This document shows positions 8,372 through 49,082 of a DNA stretch of 55,066 nucleotides, piece after piece; positions within the stretch are counted from its first letter, which is position 1, and every line of letters starts with the position of its first letter. The DNA is from Neolecta irregularis DAH-3 (lineage: Eukaryota). Where the stretch lies: positions 1 through 55,066 of the forward strand of contig LXFE01000122.1 of NCBI GenBank assembly GCA_001929475.1, in the 5' to 3' direction. The notes below the pieces were generated by a model. That model was not told the DNA's origin and searched no databases. It worked only from the letters and a program-made list of their open reading frames with translations. Made by a program: the position numbers and the translations under genes.

Positions 8372-8751
8372 GGGAGGATCTCTGGTAACAGCCTCGGTTA
8401 TGAATTTATTCTGGTGGTTTACTAGGGCGTGCTTTGCGTTGATGGTTTGTTTATGTCTGCCTTGGTCAAATCGCAACTACATTCGACGGAACAAAAACAG
8501 CCATTGTCTTATCTACTACGTAGCTAGATTTCGTAGTATTTGCTACTGCACAAACACCAGTTGTAACTCTGTCTAGAACAAATGGGAGAGCCAAACAAGT
8601 ATTTTTTGGCCAATTCCCAGACGCTATATATATGCTAATTCCAGAGAATATCACTAAACGGGGACTAGCTATGATGTTCAGGCTATTTATTTAAAGTCCA
8701 CTTCAGTTAAGAAACCAAAGGATGAAACAAAGAAACATAAAACATAAAAAC

Positions 8752-9671
8752 ATGCCAAAATTTTTGCTCCTCCTCTATCTCATCGGGACAACTATTGCCT
8801 TCACCGCTATGGATTTCAGCGACCCCACAGCCGCACTCGACATCACCAAATTGCGATACAGTTTAAATCGATTGGAGGATACCATCATCTTCCAATTGAT
8901 CGAGAGAGCCCAGTTTCCTGCCAATAACAAAATCTACCAGCCAGGAGCAATTCCAATTCCAGAATTCAGTGGCTCCTTTCTCGAGTATTTTCTGCATCAA
9001 ACCGAGTCATGTTATTGTCGTGTTCTAGTCCTTCAATAGACTGACATATTAGCATTGGTTCGCCGTTACCAGTCCCCGGCTGAGTATCCGTTCACCCTGA
9101 ATCTTCCGAATCCAATTCTACCGCCCTTGCATTTCCCACAGATCCTCCATCAGAATGATGTCAATGTCAACAGCAAAATTTTGGACTTTTACACTAAAGA
9201 AATTGTCCCTGAAATTTGTACTCCTGAATTCATAGAGTCCACTCTTGGCTCAAGCGCCGTAGCTGATGTTGAATGTCTTCAAACTATTAGTTATCGCATC
9301 CATTTAGGTACAAGAAACCCTTTGGCGGGGTTTGACTTGTAAGGAAAATTCGTTGCTGAAGCCAAGTATCTTGCAGATCCTGATACGTTTAATCCACTGA
9401 TCAAAAATCGAGACACCAAGGCATTAGAGGACTTGATTACTGCACCAAAGGTAGAGGCACAAGTTTTGAAGAGACTCGCCTCGAAAGCAAAGGCATACGG
9501 GCAGTTAGAGTGTGACGGTTGCCCGGTCGAAAATAAATTAAATGTGAGTGCTGTTATTTCCATGTACACCCGGCATATAATCTCCTTGACCAAACTTGTA
9601 GAGGTACGTATAATATTGCAGCGATATTTAACCATTGTTAGGTTGATTATCTGTTACAAAGACTTGATTGA
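8752..9671 (+). CDS. ARO7: Chorismate mutase (eukaryotic AroQ) with N-terminal signal-peptide-like extension
   Basis: LRYSLNRLEDTIIFQLIERAQF, RIHLGKFVAEAK, TKLVEVDYLLQRL. Introns 9017-9052, 9308-9343, 9604-9641. Conventional MDFS start at 8809; in-frame upstream ATG at 8752. Confidence 0.93.
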
Positions 9672-9832
9672 TGGGTTTAAAGAGAGTTTTCTGGCAAGAG
9701 GTGATATATTTTTCCCAGTTGAATGGTGGGAGAGATGGGTCAGTCCATAGTTCCAAGTGTTTTACAAGCCTTCTCTTTATTTATTTATAGCCTAACCTGG
9801 TGTGCTCCATGGGACTACCATAATTCTAGCAG

Positions 9833-11263
9833 CTACTCACGTTCTTGCCTTGCAGCTTGTTCTTCCTTTTCCAGCCTCTTTAAATCTTTGATTCCTAGAT
9901 CATCTTCTTGTTCTGGAGTGCGTTCCTTCAGTAAGTTTGACCATGAAAGAAGAGATGATACGTACATAGTCCTCTATCTCCATATTCGGATCTTTATCTG
10001 GTGCATATGGATTTTGAAGATGTGATGCGGCCAGGGGATCGTCTAGAATAACTGTGAATTTTCGCTTCCCTTCCTCAGCTTCGCTCAGGCCTGCTAGGAA
10101 CGATTCCCAGCGAGCTTTCTTTTCTGGATCTGTAGAATCTGATTCTTGCGAATACACTCTGCCATATAGTTCTGAATGAACTTGTTTCAATAAACCTTCG
10201 AGTGTAGTAAATCGTCCGCCAAGAGTACCGGGATGAAGATCCAACCCCAATTCTGGTATTGTCAGAGCACAGGTTTCGCTCTATTCCATCAACCAGGAAT
10301 CTCTACCAATCTGAAACCTGCCTTCAAAATATCTCTATTGAGATCTTCGGCATCTTCCACCTTCAAAATGATCTTTCTAGCCTTATCTGGGATTGCACCA
10401 CCCGTTTTCACCTCGTTACTTCTATAGCCACAAGAATCACAGGTAGTGCTCATCAGCACAACTTCTTTGAAATGCGGAATATCGACCATCTTCATCCTAG
10501 TGTCGCAGTGATGTTCGCAGGAAGGACACTTAGCGTTAAACGTGTGAACTTCTTCGGGCATAATTTCATCAGTAGTTAGACCTAAAGCCTTATTTTGCTC
10601 GCTGCTTCTGATGTAATCAGACCGAGTGAGACCTTTGGAAGATTCTCCAGGCATATATTCAATCCAACTATTACCAGAAGGATCATCAAGTATTATCGTA
10701 TAGCGTCCATCTTGGATGAGTTTTCGACCGCGGCATAGAAATTCTTCTATTTGCTCATAGTTCTTCGGGTCTTGATGTTTCCTGAGAGTCTGTCCAGCTT
10801 CTAAGTCCTCTAGAGCGGTAGCTAAGAGACCCTCCACAGTGGTGAGTTGACCTCTTTGAGGCGGTATTTCGAGATCAAGCTCTGGAATTGTTGATGTACA
10901 TGTTTCGGATTTAACTATTTGACGGTTCAGATCTGTCTTGGAGGATGTGTTGAAGATAAACCGAGCGCCTTTCTCTTGTATGATCCCAGCATTTTTAATC
11001 TCTGAGTTTTTCAACCCTGTTACTTAGAGAACTACTGCAGTAGACTGTACCACAATGAGGACACTCAAAAGACATTAACACAACTTCACGAAAATAGGGA
11101 ATTCGTGTTAGCAGTAATTTTGTAGTTCCCTAATCAGTTAACAATCATTTTCTATGATTGTTGGTAAATTTTCGTGACAATTCATGCATAGACTCTCGAT
11201 CTCAGTAGGGTTCTCGCCGTCTGCAACGGTCTGTCCGACATCCTGGAAGAGTTCCTGGGCCAT
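9833..11263 (-). CDS. ZPR1: Zinc finger protein ZPR1
   Basis: Two ZPR1 modules: [38 protein letters not shown] and CPSC...CDSCGYRSNEVKTGG; LGGRFTTLEGLL. Four introns, including 11130-11167 (non-canonical) and 10281-10321 (GC-AG). Confidence 0.95.
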
Positions 11264-11341
11264 GGCGGGACTTCCAAAAATGCACACTATGTCTACAGGG
11301 TTTCTGTTTTGCTCGTGACCTCAACACCAACTGATCCCTAT

Positions 11342-12779
11342 ATGAGAGTAGCCTTTATCCACCCAGACCTTGGAATTGGTTCGCACTTGCTGTATTTATA
11401 CCCTTATGCGATTCAGGCGGTGCAGAGAGACTCGTTGTCGATGCCGCAGTAGGTCTACAAAACCGCGGCCACCTCGTCACCGTTTATACATCCTACTGCG
11501 ATAGGAATCATTGTTTTGACGAAGTAAAAGACGGTACGGGCAGGACTTGTCATACCAATTTATGCAAAAGGCTCACTACATGTCCGAGTTTTGGGCGACT
11601 CGATATTCCCGACAAACATCTCTGGTCGGTTTGCACTCCTGTGTGCAATTCTTCGACAAATCCATCTTGTGATCGCGTTTCTACTTGACGGGACCCAGTA
11701 CGATGTCGTTTTTGTCGACCAGCTTTCAACATGTATCCCGCTGTTGAAATTGAAACACAAGGTCAAGGTTTTATTCTATTGCCATTTCCCGGATAAACTC
11801 CTTTCCAAAAAGGAAGGTCTGCTCAAACGACTTTATCGTCTACCGTTGGACTGGGTTGAAGAGTTCACTACTGGATGCGCGGACGACATAGTCGTAAATA
11901 GTAACTTCACAGCTAGTATCTTTCACGCCTCGTTCACTTCTATTAAAAGAATTCCAAGAGTCTTATATCCAGGGGTTGACATACCATCAAAAATGACATC
12001 TTATAGCGGCTTGCTCTCTGCAATTCAACAGTACTGAAATTTGACACTGGTCTTCATACTTACCAGATAGAGAGAAGTCTATATTCCTTTCACTCAATCG
12101 CTTCGAACGCAAAAAGAATATCAGTTTAGCGATATCGGCATACGCATCTCTGAAATGTCCGTCGAAATTCCAAAAGACCATGCTCGTAATTGCCGGCGGG
12201 TACGATTCTAGAGTAGCGGAGAACGTGGAGTATCACAAGGAACTCGATACATTCGCAACGAGCCTGGGATTGATTACAAAGACAATAGAATCTAGTTCAC
12301 CGGAATTTGATCTCTCAGATATAAACGTCTTGTTTCTTCCCTCTGTTTCATCTTCTGACAAGGCGGCATTACTTGAACGAGCTTCACTTTTGCTATATAC
12401 TCCATCCTTTGAACATTTCGGGATTGTTCCTCTAGAAGCTATGCTCGCTTGTACCCCTGTCCTCGCAATCAACAATGGTGGTCCACTCGAGACGATAGAA
12501 CACAATGTAACTGGTTGGCTTCAGGAAGAATCGACAAAACAATGGTCGTTGGTAATGGAAAAAGTGTTGGAGATGAATGCAACTGAATTAGAAAAGATGG
12601 GCCAAATGGGTCGTGAGAGTGTAATGTCAAGATTTTCGAAAGGAAATATGGCCAGGCAACTTGAGGAGAATCTGCAGGACATGAAGGAGCGTCCAGCAAA
12701 AACAGATTGGGTATTCTATGCGGGTTTAGGTCTTTTCATTGCATTATCGGTCTTGCTTTTGATACAGGTAATTGCCTAG
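11342..12779 (+). CDS. ALG2: Alpha-1,3/1,6-mannosyltransferase (GT4)
   Basis: [61 protein letters not shown]. Introns 11379-11416, 11534-11570, 12031-12070. Confidence 0.95.
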
Positions 12780-12934
12780 ACGGTAATTCAAGCGCTTATT
12801 CCAAATTTTCAAATATATATTATACCTTACGGGCAAAAACAAAAGAATATTGCCTAAGCGCGTATTCCAAGAGGACCCAAGCTGTTTCGCCGAAAGAACA
12901 TAAATTAACTCTTACAATATGATCCATCCTAGTA

Positions 12935-13661
12935 TCACGGCCAATAGAACCACTCCTTTTGGTTAAAAGAAATCGCGAAAATACACCAAAGCCTACCCAT
13001 TTCGTGACCTTTTGTCGACATATCGGGCAGTTTCCAGAATTTTGAGTGTGACAACCTATCATCTGAATTCCAGCGCAACTCTACGATTAAACTGAGTGTT
13101 GGAAAGATGTGATTTACGATACAAGAGCAGCAATGGCGGCAAGGGAAAAACACAACGTTTACCATGTTTTCCAAGCAAATTTTACAGCTTTGTGTGATTG
13201 TCGTATCATCCAATGAGTAAATAGGAGGCATCAATTGAGCCTCACGCGATCGCGGACAAGTCTGTGGTGAAGAATCGCTTCCGTTGAACAAAACAAGAGC
13301 ATTGTTTTCATCCACCGCAGGAATGTGGATCGAGATATCTTGGGTTGAGACTGTTTGGAAAAAAGAAGGAGAGGCTCCTCTAGTAGTCGGACCGACGTGT
13401 AATTCCTCCGTTGAAGACTCTACAGACTGTGGGCATATAATCCTGGAGTATATGCATACGTCGACAAGCGTCACAATATTCTCCCCATGTTTCGAGATCG
13501 GGTCTTTCAATAAAAAACGCAGGATTGCGAAGGCTGTTGTCTGAACATCGACAACATTTCCCCTGGATATCTCGTTTCTCGCAAAGTACACGACCGGCTT
13601 GAGCGCTGCAACAACGATAAAGCGTCAAGGCAGTGCTCGTTGAGGATCTTGACACAGACAT
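12935..13661 (-). CDS. C3HC4 RING-finger protein with Cys-rich N-terminus
   Basis: CKICLENMVNVVFFPCRHCCSC..C...CPICRQKV. Three GT-AG introns join a Cys-rich first exon to the RING frame. Confidence 0.7.
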
Positions 13662-13863
13662 GATTCTGTAAAGAATCACTGATTAATTGATTGCCAGACG
13701 CCTAGTTGGAGTCGATTATAGATCGAGGTCGTTGGTTGCAGTTAAAATAGGGATGAAGTCGAGAAATCGTCTTATCGGGCACTATCAACATGAATTTTGC
13801 TTATATATGAATTTAGCCGGGTTGACCCCAAAGAGATGTCCAAGCGGTCTTTGATATTACTTT

Positions 13864-15171
13864 TCATCGTACTTTCCACCTCTTTCCTCCAGTAATCATC
13901 AAGGGGCTGTGATGGTTGCGCGATATGAATGATGTAGGCTTTGAATCACCAGCGTGATAGTAAGATATACCCTAGAGATCAGAAAGATTGAGCAGACGCT
14001 TTAACCATGGATCCAGTGGTGTGGCTGAATTCAAATTGAATTGCAGCGTCTTTTTCTTGCTCATCTAAATGAATTATAACAAGACCGACTGAAAGCTTCT
14101 CCGAGCGACTCTCTGCGAATGCTATCATTTAGAAAAGCGTGAAAAGCGTGAAAAGCGTGATACCTTCGAGTTCTTTAAAAGTCTTGGCAAGTCCTCCAAT
14201 TTCATCATCAAAAGTGAGATTCTGAATGGTTCGGCTAGCTAGCAGAGAATTCATGATTTGTTCGCCCATTCCTTGTCATCAAGCCCCAAAGCATGTTTTG
14301 GGAGAACCTGTCGACAGGACAGTTGTATTACTAGCCATCCATAATCCAATTCCGGCAAGGGCAGCCGGGCCAACTCGACCATTCTGTTTAAGAGCAATTC
14401 CTCCAGATGAGCTTGCACATGCGATTTTTCCCGAGGAATCAAAACATATGGCGCCAACGGTATCGTCGACGATATCGCGGGGATGATTTGGTTCTTTAAA
14501 GCAGCTGCCGTCATCATCGAGTAACGAACGCCAATAAGCATAATCGATTCGAGCACGTTCAGAAACCATCGAATCCAAATCAACTACCTGCACGCCATGC
14601 GCTTTACACCATTCAGAAGCACCTGAACCGACCAGCAAACTAAAAAGAATATCAGACCAAGTATTAAATAAAAATAACCTAGGTTGAATTCGTCCTCGGG
14701 GTAACTTGACCAAACCTTCTTCCCACAATTTACAAGCGCCCGAGATTGGATTATAAACTCCTTGTCGTGAGTTTTTGATAGCTGCTAAGAACGACCGTTG
14801 ACAGCACCTAACGCGGCGCAACGGCCTTGATACATAACAGCCGCATCGCATTCCACCGAGCCTGTTACCGTGAGATTTGATCCAAAGCCAGCATTAGTAA
14901 GCGCCGAGTCCTCTAGAATTTTCACCGCCATTTCAACAGCTTTAAAAGACGAAGATCCAGAGAGGAGAAGATCCATTGCTCTAATACATGATCTCGAATA
15001 AGAACATAGATTTTTTAATGATGTTACTCGTTGCATAAAGCTTTATATTGATTCTCGAGTTTCCTTGAATGATTTCCAGCGCCAATATGAACTTGAATTA
15101 ATTTTTTCAACGTTTAAATCGCGAGTACCGACGACAAAAGGTTTATATGGTCCAATTATTTTGTCGGTCAT
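13864..15171 (-). CDS. Threonine aspartase (taspase-1)/asparaginase-2 family Ntn hydrolase
   Basis: [37 protein letters not shown]...GRVGPAA, STGMGEQI. Seven introns. Confidence 0.88.
14132..14160. repeat. Perfect 9-bp tandem repeat (GAAAAGCGT x3) inside an intron
   Basis: gaaaagcgt three times, filling most of a minus-strand intron of the taspase-like gene. Confidence 0.9.
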
Positions 15172-15277
15172 AGAGTTTGGACTATTTTCTTGGGGGATGC
15201 GTCACATGTGGGCAGGGGAGGTGTTTCCTTGGATCAAGTTGCCCACCAAGACGATACCTACAGCGAAATAATATAAA

Positions 15278-16782
15278 ATGAAGCAACTTCCCCCGATTAT
15301 CATGGACAAGTATCAAATTATTATTCGGTTGAAGTGCTGATATTTAGTGGAACCGGATTCACCAAGCTTGGGTATATCAGGTGCATAATTGGCTACTGAA
15401 TCCAGTTTTGCTGGTAACGATTCCCCATCCTTTGTTATTCCAACTGCAATTGCAACTCGGCAAGCTCCAGGGACAGCAGGCTCAGCATCTCGAACAATGG
15501 TGCCATCTAAACCGTCATCCCTATCCAGTGGTGGATTTTTGTCCTCGAAAAGAGGAACCGAAGACCTTGATTTTTTTATTGGCGATGAGGCAATTTCGCA
15601 GTCTAATAGCTCTGGATACGGATTAAGTTATCCGATTAGACACGGTCAGGTTGAAAATTGGGATCATATGGAACGGTTTTGGGAACAAAGTATCTTCAAA
15701 TATTTACGATGCGAACCAGAAGATCATCATTTCCTCTTGGAAAGTTTGGGTCTTGAAGCTTTTGGCTTATATGTAGACTGAACCTCCTTTGAATCCGCCT
15801 GAAAACAGGGAAAACACCGCGGAGATTATGTTTGAGTCGTTCAATTGTAAAGGACTATATATTGCCGTTCAGGCTGTTCTTGCGCTAGCCGCATCATGGA
15901 CATCGTCTAAAGTCCAAGACAGGTCTCTTACAGGAACAGTTATTGATTCCGGGGACGGAGTCACTCATGTAATACCTGTTGTACGTTGTGTTTGAGAGTT
16001 GCTGTTTTAATTCGATAGGCTGATGGTTACGTTATTGGATCTTCAATCAAGCATATCCCGATTGCGGGTCTTGATATCACACGATTTGTACAGTCTCTTC
16101 TTCGAGATCGGAATGAACCAGATTCGAGTCTTCGCACAGCAGAAAAGATTAAACAAGACTATTCGTACGTATGTCCGGATATTGTCAAGGAATTTGCAAG
16201 GTACGATCGCGATCCGGAACGGTTTCTTCAACATACCGTTGAAACTCCGTCTGGGAAGACAGTTGTGGTTGATGTTGGATTTGAGAGGTTTTTGGGACCC
16301 GAGATATTTTTCAATCCCGAGATTGCGAGTAGTGATTTTCCAACACCGCTGCCGGAGGTTGTGGACAGTGTTATTCAGAGTTCGCCGATTGATGTTCGCA
16401 GAGGGCTGTACAAGGTTTGTGGGACATGAGCGGCGGGCTGATTGCAGAACATTGTATTATCTGGCGGATCGACGCTGTTTGAAAACTTTGCGAAACGGCT
16501 GCACCGGGACATTAAACACATCGTGGAGGCGCGGATCCGCAAGAGCGAGGAGCTGTCTGGAGCCAAGAGCGGCGGCCTGGATGTGCAGGTGGTGAGTCAC
16601 AAGAAACAGCGAAACGCAGTGTGGTTTGGGGGCAGTTTATTGGCTCAGACGGTAACGAACGGGGATTTCAGGCTGCTAACGCGCAGCCCGAGTTTTTCTC
16701 GTACTGCCACACCAAGGCCGACTATGAAGAGTATGGGCCGTCTATTGCACGGCGTTACAATGTGTTTCAGAGTGCAGTGTAG
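15278..16782 (+). CDS. ARP3: Actin-related protein 3
   Basis: [81 protein letters not shown]. Six introns, including 15740-15776 (GA-AG). Confidence 0.97.
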
Positions 16783-16799
16783 GTAGAGGATTACATTGT

Positions 16800-16878
16800 T
16801 GTTGAGATCTGTCTATTGCTGCCAGCGCGGATAGCTGTTGAGATCTGTCTATTGCTGTTCCAGCACGGATATCTGTTG
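16800..16878. repeat. Degenerate ~36-bp tandem duplication across the ORC6 stop codon
   Basis: tgttgagatctgtctattgctg at 16800 and 16836, each followed by ccagc(g/a)cggata(g/t)ctgttg. Confidence 0.85.
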
Positions 16879-17688
16879 GAGGATGTCTGCCTTCCATGTG
16901 CCGTATGCCTCCATGCGCCGTGCACTCAGATAGTCCACCTGTGTCTGGCGGTTAGAGCAGAAATGCCAAAACATGCAAGTGCGCCTGTTGCTGCAGACAT
17001 CTTGTCTTTGCGCAAAACCCGCGGTGTGGACTCGCTGCACTGTGCCGAATGACCCATCTCCATCTCGCTGTACCACGCCGAATGTTCGATCTCGTCGCGC
17101 AACAACGCAATCCAGCGGTCCAGCGCAGCTTTGTCAAACGCGGCATCGCCAATCGCCGCAAACAGTTCGCCGCGCAGCGCCCTGCTGTTGACGCTGTGTT
17201 TTCCCGTCTTGGCAAACACAAAAAGCGCAGCAGTATACAACAATCCCGGGTACGAATCGGCGCGCGGATGCAGTTTTCGCAGAAACTCAACAGCGCGCAC
17301 CAGGTGGGCGGCAGCTTGTGCGCGCCCAGCCCGCGTACACAGCGCCGCTGCGTCTTTTTGCAGGCGGCGGCCAGCAGAGACAGGAACAAGCGTCTCGCAA
17401 AAGGCAGCCGCAAGTCGGGTTCGCTTCTTTGGCGGCAGCGGCACCCGCAACACCTCGCTTCCCACTCCCGCACTGCGTTTCAGCAGTGGCCAGTACTCGC
17501 CAATACGCCCGGCACGCAGCAATTGCACACAGATGGGCCCGCGCAGGCTCAGCGCCCGCCGGCAGCGGCAAAACAGACCGCGACCGCGCAACAAACGATT
17601 CCGTCTGGCGTACAAGCTCGTCGTTGCTATCGCCAGAATCCTTCAGCACGTCTACCAGCGCACTCGCGGCCACACTGTGCTGCGACAT
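16849..17688 (-). CDS. ORC6: Origin recognition complex subunit 6
   Basis: EPARAHLCAIAAC, PLPPKK, C-terminal VDYLSARRMEAYGTWKADIL. One 34-nt GT-AG intron and one GC-AG intron starting at 16976. Confidence 0.75.
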
Positions 17689-17787
17689 GCGTAGATACCA
17701 GCAGAATAATATTGGGCTCTTTCTGGTGGTGGTGGTGCTGTAAAAAATCCCAGATCAGCCTGCCTCTGCCTCGCCGCTTTTCATTCA

Positions 17788-18159
17788 ATGTCTGGCGCCG
17801 TACTACTTTGTTCTTCCATTCTCTACTGACCCTCCAGTTCCAGCCCGTCAATCCAAAGCCCTTTTTACAGGGTCTAGTAGGCAAAGACATCCTCGTCAAG
17901 CTCAAGTGGGGTGTGTGCTGAGATTTGATGTCCCGCTAATTTATACAAAGGCCAGGAATACCAGGGCGAACTCGTATCCGTTGACTCCTACATGAACATC
18001 CAGCTCATCGGCACAAAGGAGTTTGTTGATGGAAAACACGCTGGAGACCTTGGCGAAGTCCTCATCAGGTCGCAGTTTCTATTTTCTGCTCTTACTCGTA
18101 GATGCAACAATGTCCTCTGGGTCAGCGCATCATCAGATGACGTGGAAATGAAGGACTAG
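17788..18159 (+). CDS. SMX3: Small nuclear ribonucleoprotein Sm F
   Basis: [43 protein letters not shown]...LGEVLIRCNNVLW across four exons. Confidence 0.95.
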
Positions 18160-18203
18160 AAGAAAGAAAACCACAACTTGTACATCTATCCGCTCCTCGT
18201 TTC

Positions 18204-18858
18204 TCATGCCCTTTTGATTTCCCACTTCATTTCAGTGATTGCAACTTCCTCTCCCGTCTGTCTTGTCAGCTGAGAATTCATACACCCTCACCTTTTCGTC
18301 ATAGTCATACCAATCTTCATACAGCTCAATGTTCTCAAACTTGGTCCCATGGTTTCCTTCTGCTACCCACAAACCCTACCACCCATAAAGTCATATTTAA
18401 GCAAAACACAAACCTCTGGCTTGAAATTGTTGATCTCGAACCCTCGACATTCAATCACAATCAACGTTTGTGGTTTCGACCCAAGTTCCTGCTTACAAGG
18501 CTCTACCTCGCCAACAATATCTACATTTAAGCAGAATCACATCCATGAATCAAACTCGCAGAACTTTGCCTCTACTATAAGTAAATGTCTCTCGATATAA
18601 ATACCTTGCAGTTCTTACATTTCCAAAAGAAATTGACTTGCGATCCTACTAAATCGTGCGAATCCTCAAATTTAGATTTTGTTCCATTGAGATTCAAACT
18701 TGCGCTGAAATATCTACTCTCTTGTCGTGAATTTCTCGGCAACTCCCGCATTGGATCTGGAAATTCCATCTATATTTCCCATATTCTTCATTTTCGTTTG
18801 GTCTCAGGTTTGTTACGCCGTTTAAATTCGCAGCTAGATTGACGGATAATCTGACCAT
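18204..18858 (-). CDS. CXXC zinc-binding protein, DUF866/UPF0587 (C1orf123-like)
   Basis: VTNLRP, IQCGSCREIH, NFFWKCKNCKR, IECRGFE, WYDYDEK. Five introns; 16-nt microexon at 18556-18571. Confidence 0.88.
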
Positions 18859-18939
18859 TTTATTGTAGACGATTTCCAAATTTTGGTTTTGCGCTTTCTC
18901 CACACCACCAATTCCGTCGATGCACAACTATCCGTAGTA

Positions 18940-19269
18940 ATGACTTCCTCGTTTACCTCCCCCCGAGGAAACTCCCAAGATAGCTTTCCATTCAATCATC
19001 TCCTTTACGAAAACAATGATATTGGCGAATTTTCGGGAGCACGTAGATCCAGTCGCTTCAGCTTCAACTTGGATAATATATCCTTCAACCACGGCTTTGA
19101 ACCCTTTTCCAAAGGAGAAAAGGTATAAAATAATCATTTTTCTTATTATTTCTAGACTAATACTTCCTAGTTTATGTTTATCATATCTTTTATTGCGCTC
19201 ATAATCGTTCTTGCTGGTGCCTTTGGAATTCTTGGCAGAGAAAATAATTTAGGGTCAGGAAACCCTTAA
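18940..19269 (+). CDS. Orphan ~93-aa single-pass membrane protein
   Basis: ATG at 18940. A GT-AG intron at 19123-19170 (branch GACTAAT) removes a stop and joins FMFIISFIALIIVLAGAFGILG-RENNLGSGNP*. Confidence 0.6.
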
Positions 19270-19621
19270 GGCAGGTGTTTTGGGATTTCAACAGAGATAA
19301 TAATTGAATAATTTCAATAATTTCAATCATATCGTGTATTCAGATTCGATTGCTGCCTAAACTTTTCATAGTAACTTTGCAAACAGCCAATCATAAAGAT
19401 ATTTCTAGTGATTTGTGTAGACGAGACGTGAAACTTGAGAATAAATGTCTAGAGGGGACCTGTCCGAACTTGTACATTGAAACCAACGAGCAGTAGAACC
19501 CAAAAATGTCGTTGTAAATGCTTGCAACTGTAAACTATTTTGTACAGCCAACACTATTTACCAAACTAGATCGTACAGAATCCGTCGGGTCAAGCAAAGA
19601 TCAGCACAACCAGTTATTTAA

Positions 19622-21061
19622 ATGATGTCGGCGATGCCAATTTGTCGGATGGCTACGGTCCCCTTGAACATACAAACACATTGCTACTATCAATATCGGG
19701 AATTTTCCGTACATTCCAAAGTTAAATCCGGAAACTCGCAAAATCAACAGAGTCCTTTATCAAATTTATCTCAAACTCCAATAATGTCAAACCATCGTGA
19801 TCCACCGGGCTCGTCAAATACAATTTCGTTTTCTCAAGCTGCCGCATTTTATCAAGCGCAAAAAAGGGAGGATTTTATGCAATTACCAAAACATATAAAA
19901 TCAAGTATTCAAAAGCAGCGAAAGGCAGATATCAAAGAAGATGCCCTAAAGCAGCAACTCTTAGAGAATGATCGAAATGTTGCTGAAGTCTGTGAGAAAA
20001 CTAAAACGATAACTGAACATCTCGGAGTCAATTTACTGGATTTCCAAAGTGGTCTTGATTTAAATCAGAGAACTCTTCAATTTGTCCGTGCAGAGTTAGC
20101 TTCACTTCAATCTTCCGAGAAGCGAGAACCAATTCGTCAGAAATTGGTGAACGAAATTGAAGAGTTGAAGAGAGGCCTTCAACGGCATGTGAATACACCG
20201 ATCCCACTCGATATTTCACTCACTTGCAAAAATTTCAGGCCTAGAAAATATATCGTCTACGGTAATTCACAACCACTGGATTCAAAGCTGCTGAATATAC
20301 TTCGTCTGCCGGGACCTAATGTTCTCACGGATCTCGCTCATTTGTTATTTACAACACCACATCAGCCTACCTCAAAATCGTTCAATATCATGATCCGTCG
20401 CCTGACGATATTACGATTAAATTCTGCTGCATGGCTTGTCTTTCATGCTATGCTTTTGATAGGACTAAAACCAGATCCATATACAATTTCCTCTCTTCTT
20501 CGTCTTACGGCAGTTACCAATGATTACCTTGGGTTTCGTGAAATTGTGCGTCTAATGCGAGTCCCCGGGATGAAACAACCTCGAAATATGGTTGTCTACG
20601 GAGCACTCATTGACGGATGTGTCAAATTCGGTAAACTGAGATATGCGGCAATGTATGTTCGAGCATTAAAACATGACAGATTAATAGCCGACCTTGAAAT
20701 AAACACGTCTGTTTTACAACTGTGTACAAGAAAAAAACTTTGGGAACCGGGTTTCAAAATTTGGCAAGAAATGCAATGTGCACATATCGACGAAAGAGGA
20801 TTTCATGCCATGTACAGATTATGCAGATCATGTCGAAAGTTTCCAGAAAGTCAAACGATTGTTTTGCAAGCTCGAGAACAAGGATTTTTCAAAGACCGTA
20901 TTGGTGATTTAAGAGACAAAACAAAAGGATTACCTGTTCATTCAAATAACAAAACTCCTTGCTATGAAGATTTGGCAATAAATAAAATGCCAAGGGTAAA
21001 AGATGGATCAGACAATCCGCTTTATAGAAGTGCATTACAAAAGATTTGGCGGCATATATAA
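19622..21061 (+). CDS. Pentatricopeptide-repeat protein, probably mitochondrial
   Basis: PPR-like motifs PTSKSFNIMIRRL, PDPYTISSLL, NMVVYGALIDGCVKFGKL. Intronless 479-aa ORF. Confidence 0.8.
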   Translation: MMSAMPICRMATVPLNIQTHCYYQYREFSVHSKVKSGNSQNQQSPLSNLSQTPIMSNHRDPPGSSNTISFSQAAAFYQAQKREDFMQLPKHIKSSIQKQRKADIKEDALKQQLLENDRNVAEVCEKTKTITEHLGVNLLDFQSGLDLNQRTLQFVRAELASLQSSEKREPIRQKLVNEIEELKRGLQRHVNTPIPLDISLTCKNFRPRKYIVYGNSQPLDSKLLNILRLPGPNVLTDLAHLLFTTPHQPTSKSFNIMIRRLTILRLNSAAWLVFHAMLLIGLKPDPYTISSLLRLTAVTNDYLGFREIVRLMRVPGMKQPRNMVVYGALIDGCVKFGKLRYAAMYVRALKHDRLIADLEINTSVLQLCTRKKLWEPGFKIWQEMQCAHIDERGFHAMYRLCRSCRKFPESQTIVLQAREQGFFKDRIGDLRDKTKGLPVHSNNKTPCYEDLAINKMPRVKDGSDNPLYRSALQKIWRHI

Positions 21062-21114
21062 TAACTGTAAATAGAAGAGCTTCTTGATATAAATTATTCT
21101 CAACGATTTCATTA

Positions 21115-22631
21115 CTAAACACACAATCCCAAAACTTTAAACAAGATTGGAATTTGATCATTTACCAGCCAACCTATTCCAGAATATACAATTATTTTTG
21201 TAATTACTTCAACGTCGTAGCGTACTCGAGGTTCTTCGATAGCTTGATATTTCGCATCCGAGATAAATCTATTCTTGTTGCCTAGTATTTTCTGTTGCTC
21301 GTGGTATTCTATAGCTTCATATACATCGGCCCTAGATTGCGGACCAGTACTCTCTGAATGACTGCGATTGATTCGATTAATGAGACCTGGGATTTCTTCG
21401 AGATTTAGCAAGCTCTCATCCGGAAGTTTATCGGGTACACGGATATATGTGCTTGCTTTGATATAGTGCTTTCGAGGAATAGAAAGACCCAACAGCTCAA
21501 AGAATCGAAATACTGGGGGTAAAAGGGTAAAAAGAAGCGGTTTCATCAAAACTCGCCAGGATATAATCGTAGTTATTCCTAACATCAACATTGATTTCAG
21601 AGATATGGTACCAAGTGCAATTCGAGCAATAGATATAAATATGCCAGTTTTCCCGAAATTGTAGGTAATTGAACCGATAGGATATCCAACGTATGACATT
21701 GCAAATCTCCAATGTCCCAAATGAGTGCCCATGATAACACTTGCAAAGGCAACGCCATCATCAAAGCAGGGACATGGATCGACAGGTTCGGGATGTAGAC
21801 GGATGAGAAGGAGAGTTGTAGGTACTAGAACGAGCGGTACCATTATCGACTGCGAAATGACGACGCTTTCGATATCGGATTTGAAGGTCCATCGGAGATA
21901 ACACACCAGGGCTCCGATCGCGCTCCCTGCAAAAATATCCAATGGCTTAGCAATATCTTCAAAATGAAGATCTTACCCAAAAAACCATGTAAACCACAGT
22001 AAATTCTTCCAGCAAGGATACTAGTCAGATAGATTAATGCCAAGACTCCAAGAATACTCTTTGAGAGCATTTGTAATTCAGAAGCGTGAAGAAACGCGAT
22101 CGAGTAAAGTGCAACGGCCACGGCATTCGCAGAGTGAGTCGATGGAAACCCGTATTCAAGACACACATTACGCGACATTGAAATACGATGTAAAGGCGGA
22201 GACAACGGTCGAGGAAGACAAAGAAGGTCTTTCAGCACACCTGTAAAAAACAAACCTACACCGAGAACCTGGTCATGAGCTCATATTCCAAAGCACGAGA
22301 TATACATCAACAAGTCCTTGTCCAAAATGTTGTCCTCCGAGCCAAAACCATAAAGGTAACATGAACATGAAAAACGTGTGCGTGCCCAGGTTTGCAGTCC
22401 AAGCGAAATATGCATCCCAGAAAGGTCTCCTGACATTTTTCTCTCAATTAGTATTCAAAATCTGGATGGATATTATACTTGTAGTGCTGCGAGATAAGAG
22501 GACTCTTTTCGAATCAGGGAAAGAAGGAACTGACGCGGGATATAACGCCAAGCAGGCAAATGATCTTTGTAGTGATCCATCGGTCGAAGACCTGCGTCTG
22601 GACGATATACCGTTGAATCCGCTAATAGCAT
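21115..22631 (-). CDS. LCB3: Long-chain-base (sphingoid) phosphate phosphatase, PAP2 family, LCB3/YSR3-like
   Basis: ANLGTHTFF, KDLLCLPRP, EYGFPSTHS, GRIYCGLHGFL-D, HPEPVDPCPCFDD, RYDVEVITKIIVYSGI. Four introns. Confidence 0.9.
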
Positions 22632-22836
22632 GAGATCATTAAGGTGACTTGAAGGCAGATGCAAATATTAATGGGTTTGAAACCTTCAAAGGGTCAAACA
22701 CAGTTCTCTCGCAACACAATACACAAATCTACTTGATATCAACTTTCTTAAATAACTGTGTTCTCAAATGTATCACCCAGATTTGTCGTTGTATGGCGTC
22801 GCTACCTCGGAATGGGACTGGACCTCCTGAACCACA

Positions 22837-23606
22837 ATGGGCATCGAGAGAACGAACGGACTACACCCAAATCCTGGTTTGCTTAATCCGAAAATCGGTC
22901 ATCTAACGTATCAGACTATAAGAAAAAGCTCGTTGTTGTGGGAGATGGAGGATGTGGAAAGACTTGTCTGTTGATTGTCTTTAGCGAAGGCAGATTCCCA
23001 GAGGTTCAATGTTCTCAAATCAACCCCGCATCTAATTAAAGAAATATGTTCCTACGGTCTTTGAGAATTACATCACCAATAGTTATCACAACTCCAAAAT
23101 TGTCGAATTGGCATTATGGGATACTGCCGGCCAAGAAGAATATGACCGACTACGCCCGCTTAGTTATACCGATAGTGATGTAATCCTTGTCTGCTTTGCA
23201 ATCGATGCCCCCTCGAGTTTAGAAAATGTCATGGATAAGGTACACCTATGCTATATTTTGATCCCGCCATGACATGACAGTGGTATCCTGAAGTCACTCA
23301 TTTCTGTCCAGAATCTCCGCTATTACTAGTGGGACTGAAATCAGATCTCCGGAAAAACAAGAATGCAATCGCTCTTTTGAAGACACAGGGATTGACTCCC
23401 GTATCATACCAACAGGTTGATATACGGTCAAGGAAAAACTAAATTTGCAGGCTACTGACGTCGCGAAGAAAATAAATGCAGAATATATTGAATGTTCATC
23501 TAAAGAACAAGACGGAGTGAACGAAGTTTTTGCCCTTGCAATTCAACGCGCGATTGGCAATGGAACTCTGCAGCGGTTAAGGAAACGAGTTTGCAAAGTG
23601 TTGTAA
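22837..23606 (+). CDS. rho4: Rho-family GTPase, Rho4-like
   Basis: [44 protein letters not shown]-terminal CAAX CKVL. Four introns. Confidence 0.85.
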
Positions 23607-23742
23607 CGACATTGTTTTGATTTGCTTGGGTGTTCAATGGGCGTATTTTCTTTAATCCGGTTGTTCAGACTCCTCAAGATACTGAAGAGAGACCTTACAT
23701 TAATATAATATGTACAACGTGAAGAGAGGAACAGCCAAAGGT

Positions 23743-24061
23743 TCAATCTTGCAGTGATTCTTGTTTATCCTCTTGAGGAATATCACGCGATAATACATCT
23801 TGAAAGGTTTTCCAAAGCTGTGCTACGCTTTCAAACTCTCGACCAATCTAAGATCAGAATCTGCAGAACGAAATGAGGTATTACGCTCGTGATACTCTCA
23901 AAGTTGCGATTCAATGTGTTCATATTAGTTATAATCTGCTCGAGATTCTACAAGTAAGCTGTCGACACAAGAAATCAAATCACTAGAGATATTTGGCCGA
24001 TAAGCTGATCTCTCTTCTCCTCAAACTGGTTCGATCGCTTTTTGTTCTCCGACGTGGACAT
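23743..24061 (-). CDS. DAD1: DASH complex subunit Dad1
   Basis: FEEKRDQLIGQISL-NLEQIITNMNTLNRNFESITS-IGREFESVAQLWKTF. Two introns. Confidence 0.88.
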
Positions 24062-24101
24062 TGTTCTGGTGTTGTCATGGTCACGAGTGTTCAAGAACCA
24101 A
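24062..24101. promoter_or_regulatory. 40-bp gap between divergent DAD1 and CYP10 start codons containing GGTCACGAG
   Basis: CAT at 24059-24061 and ATG at 24102. The same 9-mer occurs in reverse at 11312-11320 between ZPR1 and ALG2. Confidence 0.55.
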
Positions 24102-24774
24102 ATGAGCGTTACGCTCCATACAGATCTTGGAGATATAAAACTCGAAGTATATCTAATAAATATGTTCTGTAGCTGATCACAGGTATTCTGTGATGACGTA
24201 CCCAGGACTGCCGAGGTTTTCCAGAGATTCATGCAAGAATCATATCTAACATTTCAAGAATTTCCTTGCACTCTGCGCGAGCCAATACTATAACGGTTGT
24301 AAAATTCACCGCAATATGAAAGGCTTTATGGTGCAGGTAGGCTGCCAGCATTGCATTTCTGAATACGTAGATGGGAGATCCAACGGGTACGGGCAAGGGC
24401 GGAGAGTCAATATGGGGAGGAAAATTTGAGGACGAGATTAAAGCGTCTCTAAAAGTATATACGTGTTTGACTTCATATCTTTGACCATGTAGCATAACAC
24501 TAGAGGTATCGTTTCAATGGCGAACTCGGGTGCGGATACAAATGGAAGTCAGTTCTTTATCACATACGGGCAGCACAGCCACCTTGACGGAAAATACACA
24601 GTTTTCGGGAGGTAGGAAGATGGTATACGAAGACAGCTAAAGATTAGGGTAATCGATGGGGGTGACACGCTCGAAAGTCTTGAAAAAGTACAGGTAGATA
24701 AAAAGAACCGGCCTCTCGAACCTTTGTATTTGAAATCCGTTACGATCCATGCAAATCCATTGGCAGAGACTTGA
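24102..24774 (+). CDS. CYP10: Cyclophilin, PPIL3-like
   Basis: [70 protein letters not shown]. Five introns. Confidence 0.93.
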
Positions 24775-24836
24775 TGATCTGTGATTATGACTTCTGATTT
24801 ATAATGGTTATCAACATAAACTCCTAATGCAAACTT

Positions 24837-26051
24837 CTAATGACCATAATATGATTTTCTTACATCGTAGATATTTTTCCCACGTTCCTTTGCAATAATC
24901 TCTGGTAATTTCTGCGATTTCATAGCTTGAAAAAATGCTTTGATAACGTTCATCGGGTTCTTTGAACGGTATAATTTCGCGCTGATGTCTTTAATACCAG
25001 CACAACGACATATTTCGTAAATTAGGTGATTTGCACGAACGCCAAAACCTAAACAATCAGGACAAGGATAGGAGGTAATTGACCCGGAGGTCTAGCTCTA
25101 ACGGCTAATTCAACAGCGTGAAACTTGACTTTTACGTCCCCATGAAAAGTCCGTTCTTCGAATCGAGGTATATAATCGAGGCTCTTTGCGGCTTGCAAAA
25201 AAGCCTTCCGGATAGCCTTTTCCACGATAGCGTCTTTTCCTTCCCCGTATCCTACAAGACCATCTCCATTTCCAATGACCATCAACGCATACATACTCAT
25301 AAGCTTTCCCATCTTTGTTTGATTGACCACTCGATGAATGACGAGTGGGCATTGAGTCAAACTATCGAGTTGTTTGCGACTTAGCCCGGTTCGTTCTGCC
25401 ATAAGAGCCTCTTGAGTTTCTGTAACAGAAGCATCCTCTTTAGCAATTTTCCGCGTCTTGCTTTTATTGCTCGATCTGATTTGGGGTTGTTTAATGATTC
25501 CCTTTTTCTGCACCGGCTGTTCCTCGACCATTTCCTCCTGGATCATGTTCTTTTCCCTGAGAAGGTTTCTTCGCGCGATGTTTGCTCCCGGTTGAGGATA
25601 ATCCATTCTTGGATCCATCACCGAGAGGTCTGAGAAATACGGCATCGATAAGTGAGCACTTCTAGGTCGTATGTGATTGATAAAGCGTTCAATTTCCTCG
25701 GATGTGCGATAGAGATCATCATCATTATTAATGTCATCATTAATAATGTCATCATTAATAATGCTCGAGGATTCATTTTCCTCTTTAGACGACAGATTTG
25801 GAGAGCTTGGGATATGAGGGTCGCTCGATTCTTTGGATTGCAAATCATTTTTTGATATCGGTGTTTCTTCGCAGGGCGATTTGTTCTTGCCCTCCTTATT
25901 TAAAAGGGTTGGATTATTTCGAAAAAGGCTCGAACGAGCACCATGAAGATATCTGAGCTGAAATACAAAATTTCCTGGACGACTGCGAGCTATTGGAGGT
26001 ATCAGGTAAAGAATTCAAAAGTTTATACCAGACTGTACGGATTTTAAGCAT
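24837..26051 (-). CDS. MRPS5: Mitochondrial ribosomal protein uS5m
   Basis: RVVNQTKMGKLMSMYALMVIGNGDGLVGYGEGK, IPRFEERTFHG, RPPGFGVRANH. Two introns. Confidence 0.9.
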
Positions 26052-26209
26052 GATGCGACACGCCCCCAATGATTCTGCAGCATGACAAATGGCCTTGCAC
26101 GACCACTTTTCAATCCGAGAGAATTGCTATGATCCACACTTTACGGACTGCGAAATTGAGGTTCAAAAAAGCCGCGGCAATTTCACCACCACGCGTCGTT
26201 TATTGGTGA

Positions 26210-27946
26210 ATGATAAATTCCCTTCGATTTATCAATCGAAGCCTGAAAAGATCAATTTTTTCCAGCAGTATGACTGCTATGGATGCGCCTGCCATTGCCG
26301 TTTCCTGTGCAAAAAGGGCGATCGAGTTCAACCGGCCTCAGCCTGCAAAGAAGAGGAGAAAGTTCGAAAAACGGGCTGTCAAGCAGGGATCGTCAGAAGA
26401 GATCATCGAACAGGATGTAAGAGCGCTTTTGGGTGAGATTATCGGAAGCGAGGTGAAAATAAAATTTGAGGAAATGGCCGAGACTAAGGAAGTGGAGGTA
26501 GAGATTGTAGAGCTTGGGTCACTGGGCATACCACGCTTGCAAATTTTTGCTTATTGAATCAGGAGAAGGGATGGCGGTCCTGGATGCAAACCATGTGGTT
26601 CTTGTGCCATTCACCGTTCCTGGGGATCGAGTGAAAGCGCGGCTATACAAGCGATTCGAGTACATTCTCGATACCACCGGCCTGTCTCATGGTTTAGACA
26701 CTACTCGCTCGCTGATCTGGTGTCGGTGCTCATACCGGCAGCGGAAAGAAACGACTCTTTGATTTGCTGCCCGTACTTTGCAAAGTGCAGCGGCTGCCAG
26801 TTGCAGATGCTTGGTTATGCGGTGAGTAACCTGCCCGTACAGCCAGCTCAGGCATAGCATCAATTGCTGCACAAGGAAAAGGTAGTGAAGCGCGCTTATG
26901 CTGCGTATCCATCGCTACAAAGACCAGAGATTCTGCCTACATGTGGATCGCCTTTGCAGTATAACTATCGCACGAAAATCACTCCTCATTTCGATATGCC
27001 GCGTAAGGACAGAGCAGAAGCGTTTGTACCAACAATTGGATTCAACAAAAAGGGCCGGCGATCGGTTTTAGATATAGAAGTATGCCCGATTGCTACCCCG
27101 GTTTTGAATGTTGGATTGAAAAAGTCAAGAGAGAACGTGCTCGCAGATATTTCAGCATTTAAACGGGGAGCTACTCTCTTGCTTCGTGAATCAACTGATC
27201 GCGTCAATTCAGACGATGGTATCTCTGACGAAAAGTTTTGTGTCACGGATCACAAGATCATTATCGATGAATATGTGGACAAGTATCACTTTCAATTTCC
27301 GGCTGGCAAATGGTTCTTCATACTCAGCTAATGGTTAGGTTCTTTCTTTCAAAATAACAACTCTATACTTCCTCTCTTGACAAACCATGTCAGAGAAAAC
27401 CTGTCATTCGAAGGTTCATGCCCAGAAATATTTCTGATAGATGCGTACTGCGGCTCTGGATTATTCAGTATCACCTGCAGTGAAGGTTTTAAAGAAGTTA
27501 TTGGCGTCGAAGTTTCAGCAGATAGCGTCAAATACGCAAAGCTCAATGCCAAAGCAAACAAGGTTCAAAATGCTCGTTTCATACTAGGTCGAGCTGAAAA
27601 AATATTTGAGGAAATCCAGTTCCCTTCGGAGCAGACTGCCATGATCATCGACCCCCCTCGTAAAGGCTGCGACGAAGCATTTCTGAACCAGCTACTCGAC
27701 TTCTCACCTAGACGCATTATTTATGTATCATGTAATGTCCATACCCAAGCTAGGGATCTTGCCTATATTACTCGTCATGACAAAGGCAATGGGTATATGA
27801 TAGATAGTATTCGTGGATTTGATCTATTCGTTTGTCATCGCTGTATTCATATGACTGATCAATAGCCTCAAACTTACCATGTGGAAGCCTGTGCAGTTTT
27901 ATCACGAAAGGAAAGCGTGCATTCGAATTCACAGGAAAGTATTTGA
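26210..27946 (+). CDS. TRM2: tRNA (uracil-54-C5)-methyltransferase
   Basis: CPYFAKCSGCQLQ, YNYRTKITPHF, SFFQNNNSIL, IDAYCGSGLF, IIDPPRKGC, YVSCNVHTQARD, FDLFPQTYHVE. Five introns, two of them GC-AG. Confidence 0.95.
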
Positions 27947-28110
27947 TTTTTGTGAATGTATTCGGTTTGTGGTTTCCCGATAAATCCAGCACAGCTATAC
28001 GCCTCTGACTACACTGTATAATATTTAGCCTTTCCATATAGTCAAATAATTATTATATCAGTTACTGAATCAAAGGCCGATTTCACGAGTTGCCCTCCAC
28101 AATTTCGTTA

Positions 28111-48126: not shown

Positions 48127-49082
48127 ATGGGGAAACGAAGACAGGAGGTGGGTCAGTCTCAGAATAGTAGTGAAGAGAGTGGGGATGATGGAAAAGAGAT
48201 GAACGTTGATGAAGTCGAAACTGTTAATATCGATTTCGAATTTTTCGACCCAGAGGAAATCGATTATCATGGAATTAAGAATCTTCTCAAACAGCTCTTA
48301 GGAGCTTACTCGGATCCGATAGATATTTCTGCGTTGACGGATCTGATAGTGAAAGATTCTCTCGGGTCTACTGTGAAAGTGGATGGAAAAGAGAGTGATC
48401 CATATGCATTTCTGACTGTACTAAGCTTACAGAAAAATTGGGTACGACAGCTACTTGCAAGAATAATTGTTCTCACAGAGATAGAATAATCCTGGAATTC
48501 AAAAACTCTCTCAATATCTTCTCGAAAAATCTAAAGCTGAAACAAACATCTATGGGAAGCTGTCACAGTTGATGACAGCAGATTCAAAGTTTCAACTCGG
48601 TCTGATTTTCACTGAACGTCTGATAAACATGCCTCATGAAGTTGCTCCGCCAATGTATAGAATGCTTGTGGAGGATATTAACAACATTGTGCAAGAGGCA
48701 TATCGCTTGGATTAACTCTCCTGATTTATTTAGGATGAACAATACAAATTTGACTATTACTTGATTATTTCAAAAGCCTATGTTGAAGTTGACATTGCCA
48801 AACCCGGGAAAAAGAAAAAGAAGACCAAGGTATATCTATCAATAAAAGTGATTTGCTTTGACATGTTAGACACAGAGTGAAAATGCAACAGGTTTCTTCC
48901 ATATGGAAGATGCTCTATTCCAGAAGAACTCAATTGCATCATTATTTTATCCTTGTACCATTTCTGGAAAAGACTCTGTCCTACAAGAAGTTGGGATTAA
49001 GCCTCAAGGCTGTCTAATATTGATAAAGAACGAAGAAATGTTGAAATGCATCACAGAGTTGCAAACTAAATGGAGTGTTTAG
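48127..49082 (+). CDS. BCP1: Bcp1/BCCIP family protein
   Basis: VNIDFEFFD, DYHGIKNLLKQL, GSTVKVDGKESDPYAFLTVL, ERLINMP.EVAPPMY. Three introns. Confidence 0.93.

Follow-up and report, generated by a model that had tools for sequence, protein, structure and literature searches.

Introns that begin with GA and end with AG form a described class, grouped in the literature with the U2 introns (PMC5714493, PMC7072748). Their reported frequencies are low and annotation-based: GA donors account for 0.00–0.01% of introns in plants (PMC10668435) and for 0.006% in human (as cited in PMC5714493), while the figures given for fungi are 1.0% for GC-AG and 0.26% for all others, with 7 GC and 0 GA donors beside 5,031 GT in S. 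pombe (PMC7072748). In the copepod Eurytemora affinis (GA/GG) and in Oikopleura dioica (GA-AG), introns of this kind are described as constitutive, situated in conserved genes, with an A at +3 and with flanks stronger than those of GT donors, and an annotation restricted to GT and GC misses them (PMC5714493, PMC7072748). Isolated GA-AG introns, with good consensus elsewhere in the donor, were reported for intron 12 of Trema orientalis SYMRK (about 95% spliced; PMC10668435), for human +2T>A minigenes (PMC12805630), for Fusarium graminearum (PMC3577648) and, as cited in PMC5714493 and PMC7072748, for vertebrate FGFR1–3. Strong flanks were found to rescue GA or GG donors in the copepod (PMC5714493), in human +2 variants (PMC12805630) and in Trema SYMRK (PMC10668435). 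In budding yeast, a U2A donor was reported to impair or block the second step of splicing (PMC4836653). For Neolecta or Taphrinomycotina, no paper on GA donors was found in a search outside which most subscription journals lay; the main text of the Neolecta genome paper contains neither 'intron' nor 'splic', the matches in its supplement giving just intron density (PMC5309816), and Neolecta has no match in the supplement text, possibly incomplete, of the cross-kingdom intron survey (PMC7072748).

The third intron of the ARP3 gene of Neolecta irregularis DAH-3, located in a window of 55,066 nucleotides (the whole stretch of DNA analysed, contig LXFE01000122.1), joins this rare class. It resembles the introns of Eurytemora and Oikopleura in the features named above (PMC5714493, PMC7072748), with the following differences. 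GA introns make up an estimated 0.3–0.6% in Neolecta and not the several per cent of GA/GG seen there (3–12% of introns); the exonic AG that is obligate in those animals is replaced by TTG in ARP3, where the strength comes from the intronic AAGT; for Eurytemora a variant U1 was proposed, not proven, whereas the one U1 found in Neolecta is canonical; and the Neolecta introns span 32–45 nt. The single GA-AG introns of Trema SYMRK, the human minigenes and Fusarium graminearum (PMC3577648) are alike in being handled by normal machinery and in giving functional protein, and the good consensus elsewhere is common to all the isolated cases. FGFR1–3, as cited in the same sources, have a canonical donor 6 nt upstream, which ARP3 lacks; unlike the isolated cases in general, the Neolecta gene is single-copy, presumably essential and devoid of a GT fallback, and its genome holds several such introns together with a high share of GC. 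GC-AG introns of the U2 type, one of which lies in ORC6, adjacent to ARP3, likewise offset a +2 mismatch by better pairing elsewhere, but the +2 base of the ARP3 intron is a purine and GA is far rarer than GC.

The ARP3 gene (15278..16782, plus strand) has seven exons and, with the GA intron removed, encodes 429 aa (Table 1). Arp3 is preferred over actin and the other Arps: for one exon, the E value is 1e-45 with S. pombe Arp3 and 5e-13 with actin, and the 429-aa model is full-length. The gene is single-copy in the genome assembly (G000), other actin-family matches reaching at most 44% identity to P0002, a 93% identical protein that is continuous on a 2,119-nt contig and has the junction peptide, with no intron shown. 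Spliced alignment of P0002 to the window returned six introns, five GT-AG and one GA-AG. The latter starts with GAAAGT and ends with ATGTAG in the letters of the window, and the Pfam Actin match runs from 20 to 100 and then from 100 to 160 across its junction. The preliminary description had stated that ARP3 requires this intron, and homology, a homology-free gene model, DNA contigs and a spliced contig agree on it. Excision of the 37 nt was the only tested removal that restored the conserved Arp3 peptide, which is gapless at the junction in eight of nine aligned full-length homologues, the ninth being the public model of the same gene; the in-frame restoration stood, while the word 'invariant' applied to the peptide overstates it slightly, with FLM in Saitoella and VLL or NAPE in some environmental loci. 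Among donors from −30 to +15 and AG acceptors from −12 to +30, no GT or GC combination gave an open in-frame join, and in a wider GT/GC scan around the intron every join obtained removed or substituted conserved residues. The two internal GTs shift the frame, as had been claimed, and lead with the same AG to stops after 132 and 134 aa; retention ends, again as described, at a TGA (15779–15781) after 143 aa.

Table 1. Coordinates of the ARP3 features in the window (position 1 is its first letter).
Feature	Positions	Strand	Remarks
ARP3 intron 1	15310..15347	+	GT-AG, 38 nt; position common to 53/80 environmental ARP3 loci
ARP3 intron 2	15372..15405	+	GT-AG, 34 nt; one base off the position used in 45/80 environmental loci
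ARP3 exon 3	15406..15739	+	Ends ...DHHFLL; contigs and spliced alignment
ARP3 intron 3	15740..15776	+	GA-AG, 37 nt, phase 0, between codons L and T of FLL/TEPP; spliced contig, model posterior 0.95–0.97
ARP3 intron 3 donor	15737..15746	+	TTG/GAAAGTT; A at +2, rest consensus from −1 to +6
Competing GT 1	15744..15745	+	AAA/GTTTGG; weak context (6th percentile), frame-shifting
Competing GT 2	15750..15751	+	Very weak context (0.5th percentile); 27-nt intron; frame-shifting
Likely branch site	15765..15770	+	GCTTAT; predicted branch A 15769, 29 nt from donor, 7 nt from intron end
ARP3 exon 4	15777..15980	+	Contigs and spliced alignment
ARP3 intron 4	15981..16018	+	GT-AG, 38 nt
ARP3 intron 5	16415..16447	+	GT-AG, 33 nt
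ARP3 intron 6	16652..16686	+	GT-AG, 35 nt
Mis-modelled ARP3 region in P0001	15773..15872	+	False GT-AG introns 15773–15808 and 15830–15872; real intron read through

The base and the junction were followed in two public runs, X1 and X2, both from one study and both present as contigs only, which were compared with the window over positions 8500–28499. The X1 DNA contig covering 12232–16589 (depth about 408) has an A at 15741 with 0 other letters, so the T on which the preliminary description would have fallen was not seen; there is no side contig at this base, while small variant contigs occur at 12202, 16560 and 16591, and no other letters were found for either run. A15741 is not an isolated miscall, though X1 is perhaps the source of the assembly. 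The record of X2 says no more than 'DNA?'; X1 has no joints and X2 has 57 of them, and the latter run was inferred to be transcript-derived because the 15 joints displayed, all at intron-like ends, comprise 13 GT-AG, 1 GC-AG and the ARP3 GA-AG intron. Its contig 11 omits exactly the 37 bases proposed to be spliced from the mRNA, and the other junction that would have refuted the preliminary description was not seen: 15405–15738 and 15776–15980 adjoin at the consecutive record positions 472 and 473, with no letters between them and 205 letters on the shorter side. The ends of the joint read GG..TA, equivalent to GA..AG after a shift by the single G that both ends have in common. Precise removal from the transcript is seen at contig level, in a single contig of one study. 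With DNA, transcript-contig and protein-level support, the ARP3 GA-AG intron is confirmed as real and required. Contig 11 is itself a 7,842-nt spliced contig that extends over 15286–28499 of the window, from ARP3 to a PPR gene and through genes on both strands; it suggests overlapping UTRs in a very compact region, and a contig of this kind that crosses genes proves no single transcript.

The database labels the window's own ARP3 protein, P0001, as Neolecta irregularis. P0001 is reproduced letter for letter by the two false cuts listed in Table 1 together with the read-through, and the model with the GA intron beats it by 176–191 alignment points with five of the five homologues tested.

The context of the GA donor stands at the 80th percentile among 1,426 GT donors, and G/GAAAGT agrees with 6 of 9 U1 pairs/consensus positions against a mean of 5.06. 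The tetranucleotide AAGT at +3 to +6 is present in just 32 of 1,663 GT donors, and in this respect the GA site resembles the U1 complement more closely than the majority of GT donors in the genome do. Predicted U1 duplex energies did not separate the GA site (−4.0) from its rival GTs (−3.6 and −3.8), and the GA duplex is weaker than the GT median. Length, predicted branch motif, spacing and the TAG acceptor are typical of the 1,426 GT introns: the distance from donor to predicted branch falls within their modal 26–29 nt, and the motif CTTAT, the best one in 71 of them, scores at the 58th percentile. Of the properties of U2-type introns, a G at +1 in a donor complementary to U1 and U6 was found, as were a predicted branch site and YAG at suitable spacing, whereas the +2 base is neither T nor C, being A in the window and in the X1 contig. 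The earlier reading of GAAAGT as GTAAGT with a +2 T>A change fits in its near-consensus context; the ancestral base in it was inferred, no genomic copy of the intron having turned up in a relative, and a GC intermediate would be equally possible. U12-type introns are marked by an RTATCCTT donor and a TCCTTAAC branch; both are absent from the 37 nt, and this identity was rejected. A search of the genome for U6atac gave no match, but no positive control gave a signal either.

In the splicing machinery, one U1 gene with the canonical 5′ end ACUUACCUG was found, and no variant U1 matching GA appeared in one search that scored 41 of 209 candidates from an assembly in 4,542 contigs. The U6 ACAGAGA motif and the U5 loop are canonical. 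Homologues of METTL16 and SNRNP27 were both found, and their absence was accordingly discarded as an explanation of the loose donors. The RNase-H stretch of Prp8 equals the human one at 103 of 105 positions and has no suppressor-like changes; the comparison covered two stretches, and prp8 alleles reportedly suppress the U2A donor in yeast. In one intact-looking Prp8 piece, LIMDKG takes the place of the LAYDKG of human and S. pombe, and MRYSKQ that of LRWSKQ; these two odd patches fall within the human 1307–1676 region, upstream of the RNase-H stretch. PRP8 is split over small contigs (L088–L090 and L092–L097; G000 C2538, C2136, C4303, C2568, C1324, C4326, C1195 and C171); two of the pieces look intact, and several copies are decayed and rearranged and contain stops and frameshifts. 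Repeated duplication of PRP8 appears unusual. The U6 snRNA gene (L003:269–417, minus strand) is interrupted immediately upstream of the AGC triad by a GT-AG intron of 50 nt, mRNA-type introns being known in fungal U6 genes.

Donor usage across the genome was evaluated with a homology-free, self-trained gene model on 829 kb, composed of pieces of 17 other contigs and the window, in which all 16 donor dinucleotides were allowed with equal prior and calls were counted at a posterior >0.5. The model recovers 12 of the 14 RNA-supported joints tested. Introns are very short (median 37 nt), 97% of the 1,426 confident GT introns measuring 32–45 nt, and donors are loose. The 1,752 calls comprise 1,663 GT, 69 GC, 8 GA and 4 GG, with 8 more distributed over the twelve non-G starts, and the ARP3 intron ranks first among those that are neither GT nor GC. 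Many contigs had been picked for GGAAAGT pattern matches, and 3 such sites and the window's own were removed from the GA count; the 4 unselected GA calls among 1,748 (95% limits 1–10) compare with a non-G mean of 0.67 per dinucleotide (P about 0.005), as do the 4 GG calls (P about 0.005), and the two together give P 0.0008. The non-G background itself includes mistakes: inspection showed two calls to be wrong, C2555:56175 being a GC intron and C2555:94270 having an upstream GT. GT donors changed to GA in silico were recovered in 33% of 411 cases and in 58% of 45 in strong context, and recovery of GC by the model is 44–61%. The share of GA is thereby estimated at 0.3–0.6% of introns (limits <0.1% to about 1.6%), a rate derived from 4 unselected calls in this one genome; the estimates are similar for GG and 4–9% for GC. 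Consensus matches outside +1 and +2 increase from 3.0 of 7 for GT to 3.7 for GC and 4.5 for GA, in a model that favours strong contexts and with 4 of the 8 GA sites pre-selected. A genome-wide search for the pattern GGAAAGT-branch-YAG gave 33 matches against 30 in the control, with no excess, and 6 of the 30 loci put through the model, out of these 33, exceeded 0.5.

Pfam positions ran on exactly in 2 of the 10 other GA candidates examined; in 5 the fit was partial or without a clear outcome, and in 3 neither side matched. Of 4 GG candidates, 2 were exact and the other 2 partial or without a usable match. The match is continuous over a GA intron in an importin-beta gene (58, split codon, 60–61), over GG introns in a GH81 gene (190, 192) and in a PP2C gene (165, 167), and over the GA intron of a G-alpha gene (L103:1461–1539, minus strand, G000:C457), in which GA-AG and GT-AG introns flank a 3-nt microexon coding for one Gly (227–228, microexon 229, 230); these four are candidates at the level of Pfam continuity, and PDB alignments of the importin-beta parts were too irregular for the junction to be placed. 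The exons before other GA candidates end in AAG, GAG, CTG, ACG and AAC. These model calls support, on few counts, a +2 rule relaxed genome-wide in Neolecta, where GA introns seem to be commoner than in most organisms.

Several further loci with unusual ends were noted. A TDP1 gene (L157:2901–2938, G000:C3684) has a candidate GAATGT-AG intron that the truncated public model P0121 reads through; the sole match in a homologue search was this same public model, and the intron stays a candidate. In an LYR-family gene (L151:618–651, minus strand, G000:C3524), a candidate AT-AG intron, CAG/ATAAGT, has perfect consensus save for the A at +1, and a GC alternative lies 9 nt upstream. A gene that we take from its motifs to be adenylosuccinate-synthetase-like (L185, near 15–55; G000:C2625:10015–10055) has a peptide, RCQGGNNAGH, that seems to require a non-AG acceptor. 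Within the window, the join CMNCHEN/GTTKLLL in the first zinc finger of ZPR1 (11130–11167, minus strand) needs a 38-nt intron that starts with TTACC, with no G at +1; no frame-keeping GT or GC alternative was found at these positions, X1 has no other base there, and the joint is absent among the 15 X2 joints displayed of 57. The GC-AG intron of ORC6 (16945–16976, minus strand) is 32 nt long and spliced in X2, and the model called further GC introns at 26526–26562, 27306–27338 and 48698–48733 and, weakly, at 1613–1648. In a CXXC zinc-binding gene (18520–18605, minus strand), an X2 joint with 16 letters between its parts corresponds to two introns around a 16-nt microexon.

Concerning the history of the intron, none of 80 environmental (metagenome) ARP3 loci, among which there is no close relative, has an intron at this position, and 41 of them (42 counting L071) have a GT intron three codons downstream, at TEP/PLN. 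Two mis-modelled Pneumocystis-type proteins (P0014 and P0024) break at the positions of introns 4 and 6, and residues of P0037 that resemble a frame-shifted TEP after a skipped exon give a weak hint that Pneumocystis may also have an intron at the position of intron 3. On this basis, an old Taphrinomycotina intron with a mutated donor appears likelier than a fresh gain, with a 9-nt slide or an independent gain as alternatives. Introns 2 and 3 lie 1 nt and 9 nt off common fungal positions (45 and 41 of the 80 loci, respectively), and intron sliding is possible at both.

Taken as a whole, the ARP3 intron is very probably a constitutive U2-type intron with a GA 5′ end, the +2 mismatch of which is tolerated by the ordinary spliceosome by means of flanking pairing and tight length; tolerance by an ordinary U2 spliceosome is favoured because the machinery is normal where examined. 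Normal U1 snRNA would recognise the donor through base pairs at −1, +1 and +3 to +6, with an A-A mismatch left between them at +2, and intron definition over a very short, fixed span would aid the choice, with the typical branch site and AG fixing the 3′ end. The donor would be sought about 24–33 nt upstream of the branch A, a range in which the two GTs are poor donors. Both steps would take place on the standard U6/U5/Prp8 centre, in a lineage that may accept C at +2 and, more rarely, A or G, and some tolerance in exon ligation is implied because the yeast U2A donor impairs the second step. The GA site probably goes back to an ancient GT (or GC) donor in which a mutation became fixed by drift. 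It would be one among some tens of GA introns in a genome where the +2 rule is broadly relaxed, and it is probably not a regulatory device. A bolder proposal, which we advance tentatively, is that the Neolecta spliceosome largely gave up the +2 check, the 5′ cut being set mainly by the distance to the branch point in introns of 32–45 nt; the shares of GC (4–9%) and of GA and GG (as much as about 1% each), with constitutive introns in single-copy core genes among them and perhaps also donors that lack G at +1 (ZPR1), would then reflect a natural, genome-wide state like that of yeast U2A suppressors, with no variant U1.

It is somewhat unlikely that ARP3 represents a one-off leak, in which any spliceosome allows a rare GA donor in good context, Neolecta is no more permissive than other intron-rich fungi, and the low GA rates published reflect pipelines that forbid GA. 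The baselines are indeed annotation-based, single GA-AG introns do occur in Fusarium graminearum (PMC3577648), Trema SYMRK (PMC10668435) and human minigenes (PMC12805630), the pattern search gave no excess (33 against 30), and the snRNAs and two Prp8 stretches look ordinary; however, GA and GG each exceed the non-G background of the same model, four further GA/GG sites fit Pfam exactly, and the 69 GC calls among 1,752, uncorrected, compare with 1.0% in fungi and with 7 GC and 0 GA in S. pombe (PMC7072748). A dedicated change in the machinery that licenses A, G or C at +2, whether a variant U1, an altered Prp8 or a lost proofreading factor, as considered for the copepod Eurytemora, would fit the span of the relaxation over all three bases, the LIMDKG and MRYSKQ patches of Prp8 and the block that a U2A donor meets at the second step in yeast (PMC4836653). 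Such a change is improbable, given that the one U1 found is canonical (ACUUACCUG), as are the U6 and U5 motifs, that the RNase-H stretch of Prp8 is nearly the human one, and that METTL16 and SNRNP27 homologues are present. A GT-AG intron in which the A at 15741 stems from faulty assembly or base calling, or from a rare allele, is highly improbable: X1 may be the assembly's own data and contigs drop rare variants, but the uniform A at that depth, the variant contigs found elsewhere and not at this base, and the other GA/GG donors of the genome speak against it. Editing of the pre-mRNA at +2 before splicing, or a reverse-transcriptase template-switch joint, is more improbable still, given that A-to-I editing gives a G-like base and not U, that the one base the ends have in common is too little for a switch, and that the protein needs the join and the intron has normal predicted branch and acceptor signals, even though the intron is missing from the spliced contig and its RNA sequence is thus unseen. 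Both processes were named as possible causes of GA-AG joints (PMC7072748).

These results correct the public Arp3 model, which lacks 14 residues of a conserved core segment and has a further 18 scrambled there. Reliance of a single-copy gene of the cytoskeleton on a constitutive GA donor indicates that +2 A can serve a fungal spliceosome well enough to sustain the organism, in contrast to budding yeast reporters, in which +2 A is reported to block the second step (PMC4836653). If the relaxation at +2 is genome-wide, the gene models of Neolecta, and the gene-loss claims derived from them, would need re-annotation allowing non-GT donors, and the 37-nt intron would offer a small test system, transferable to S. 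pombe, for what enforces the GU rule.
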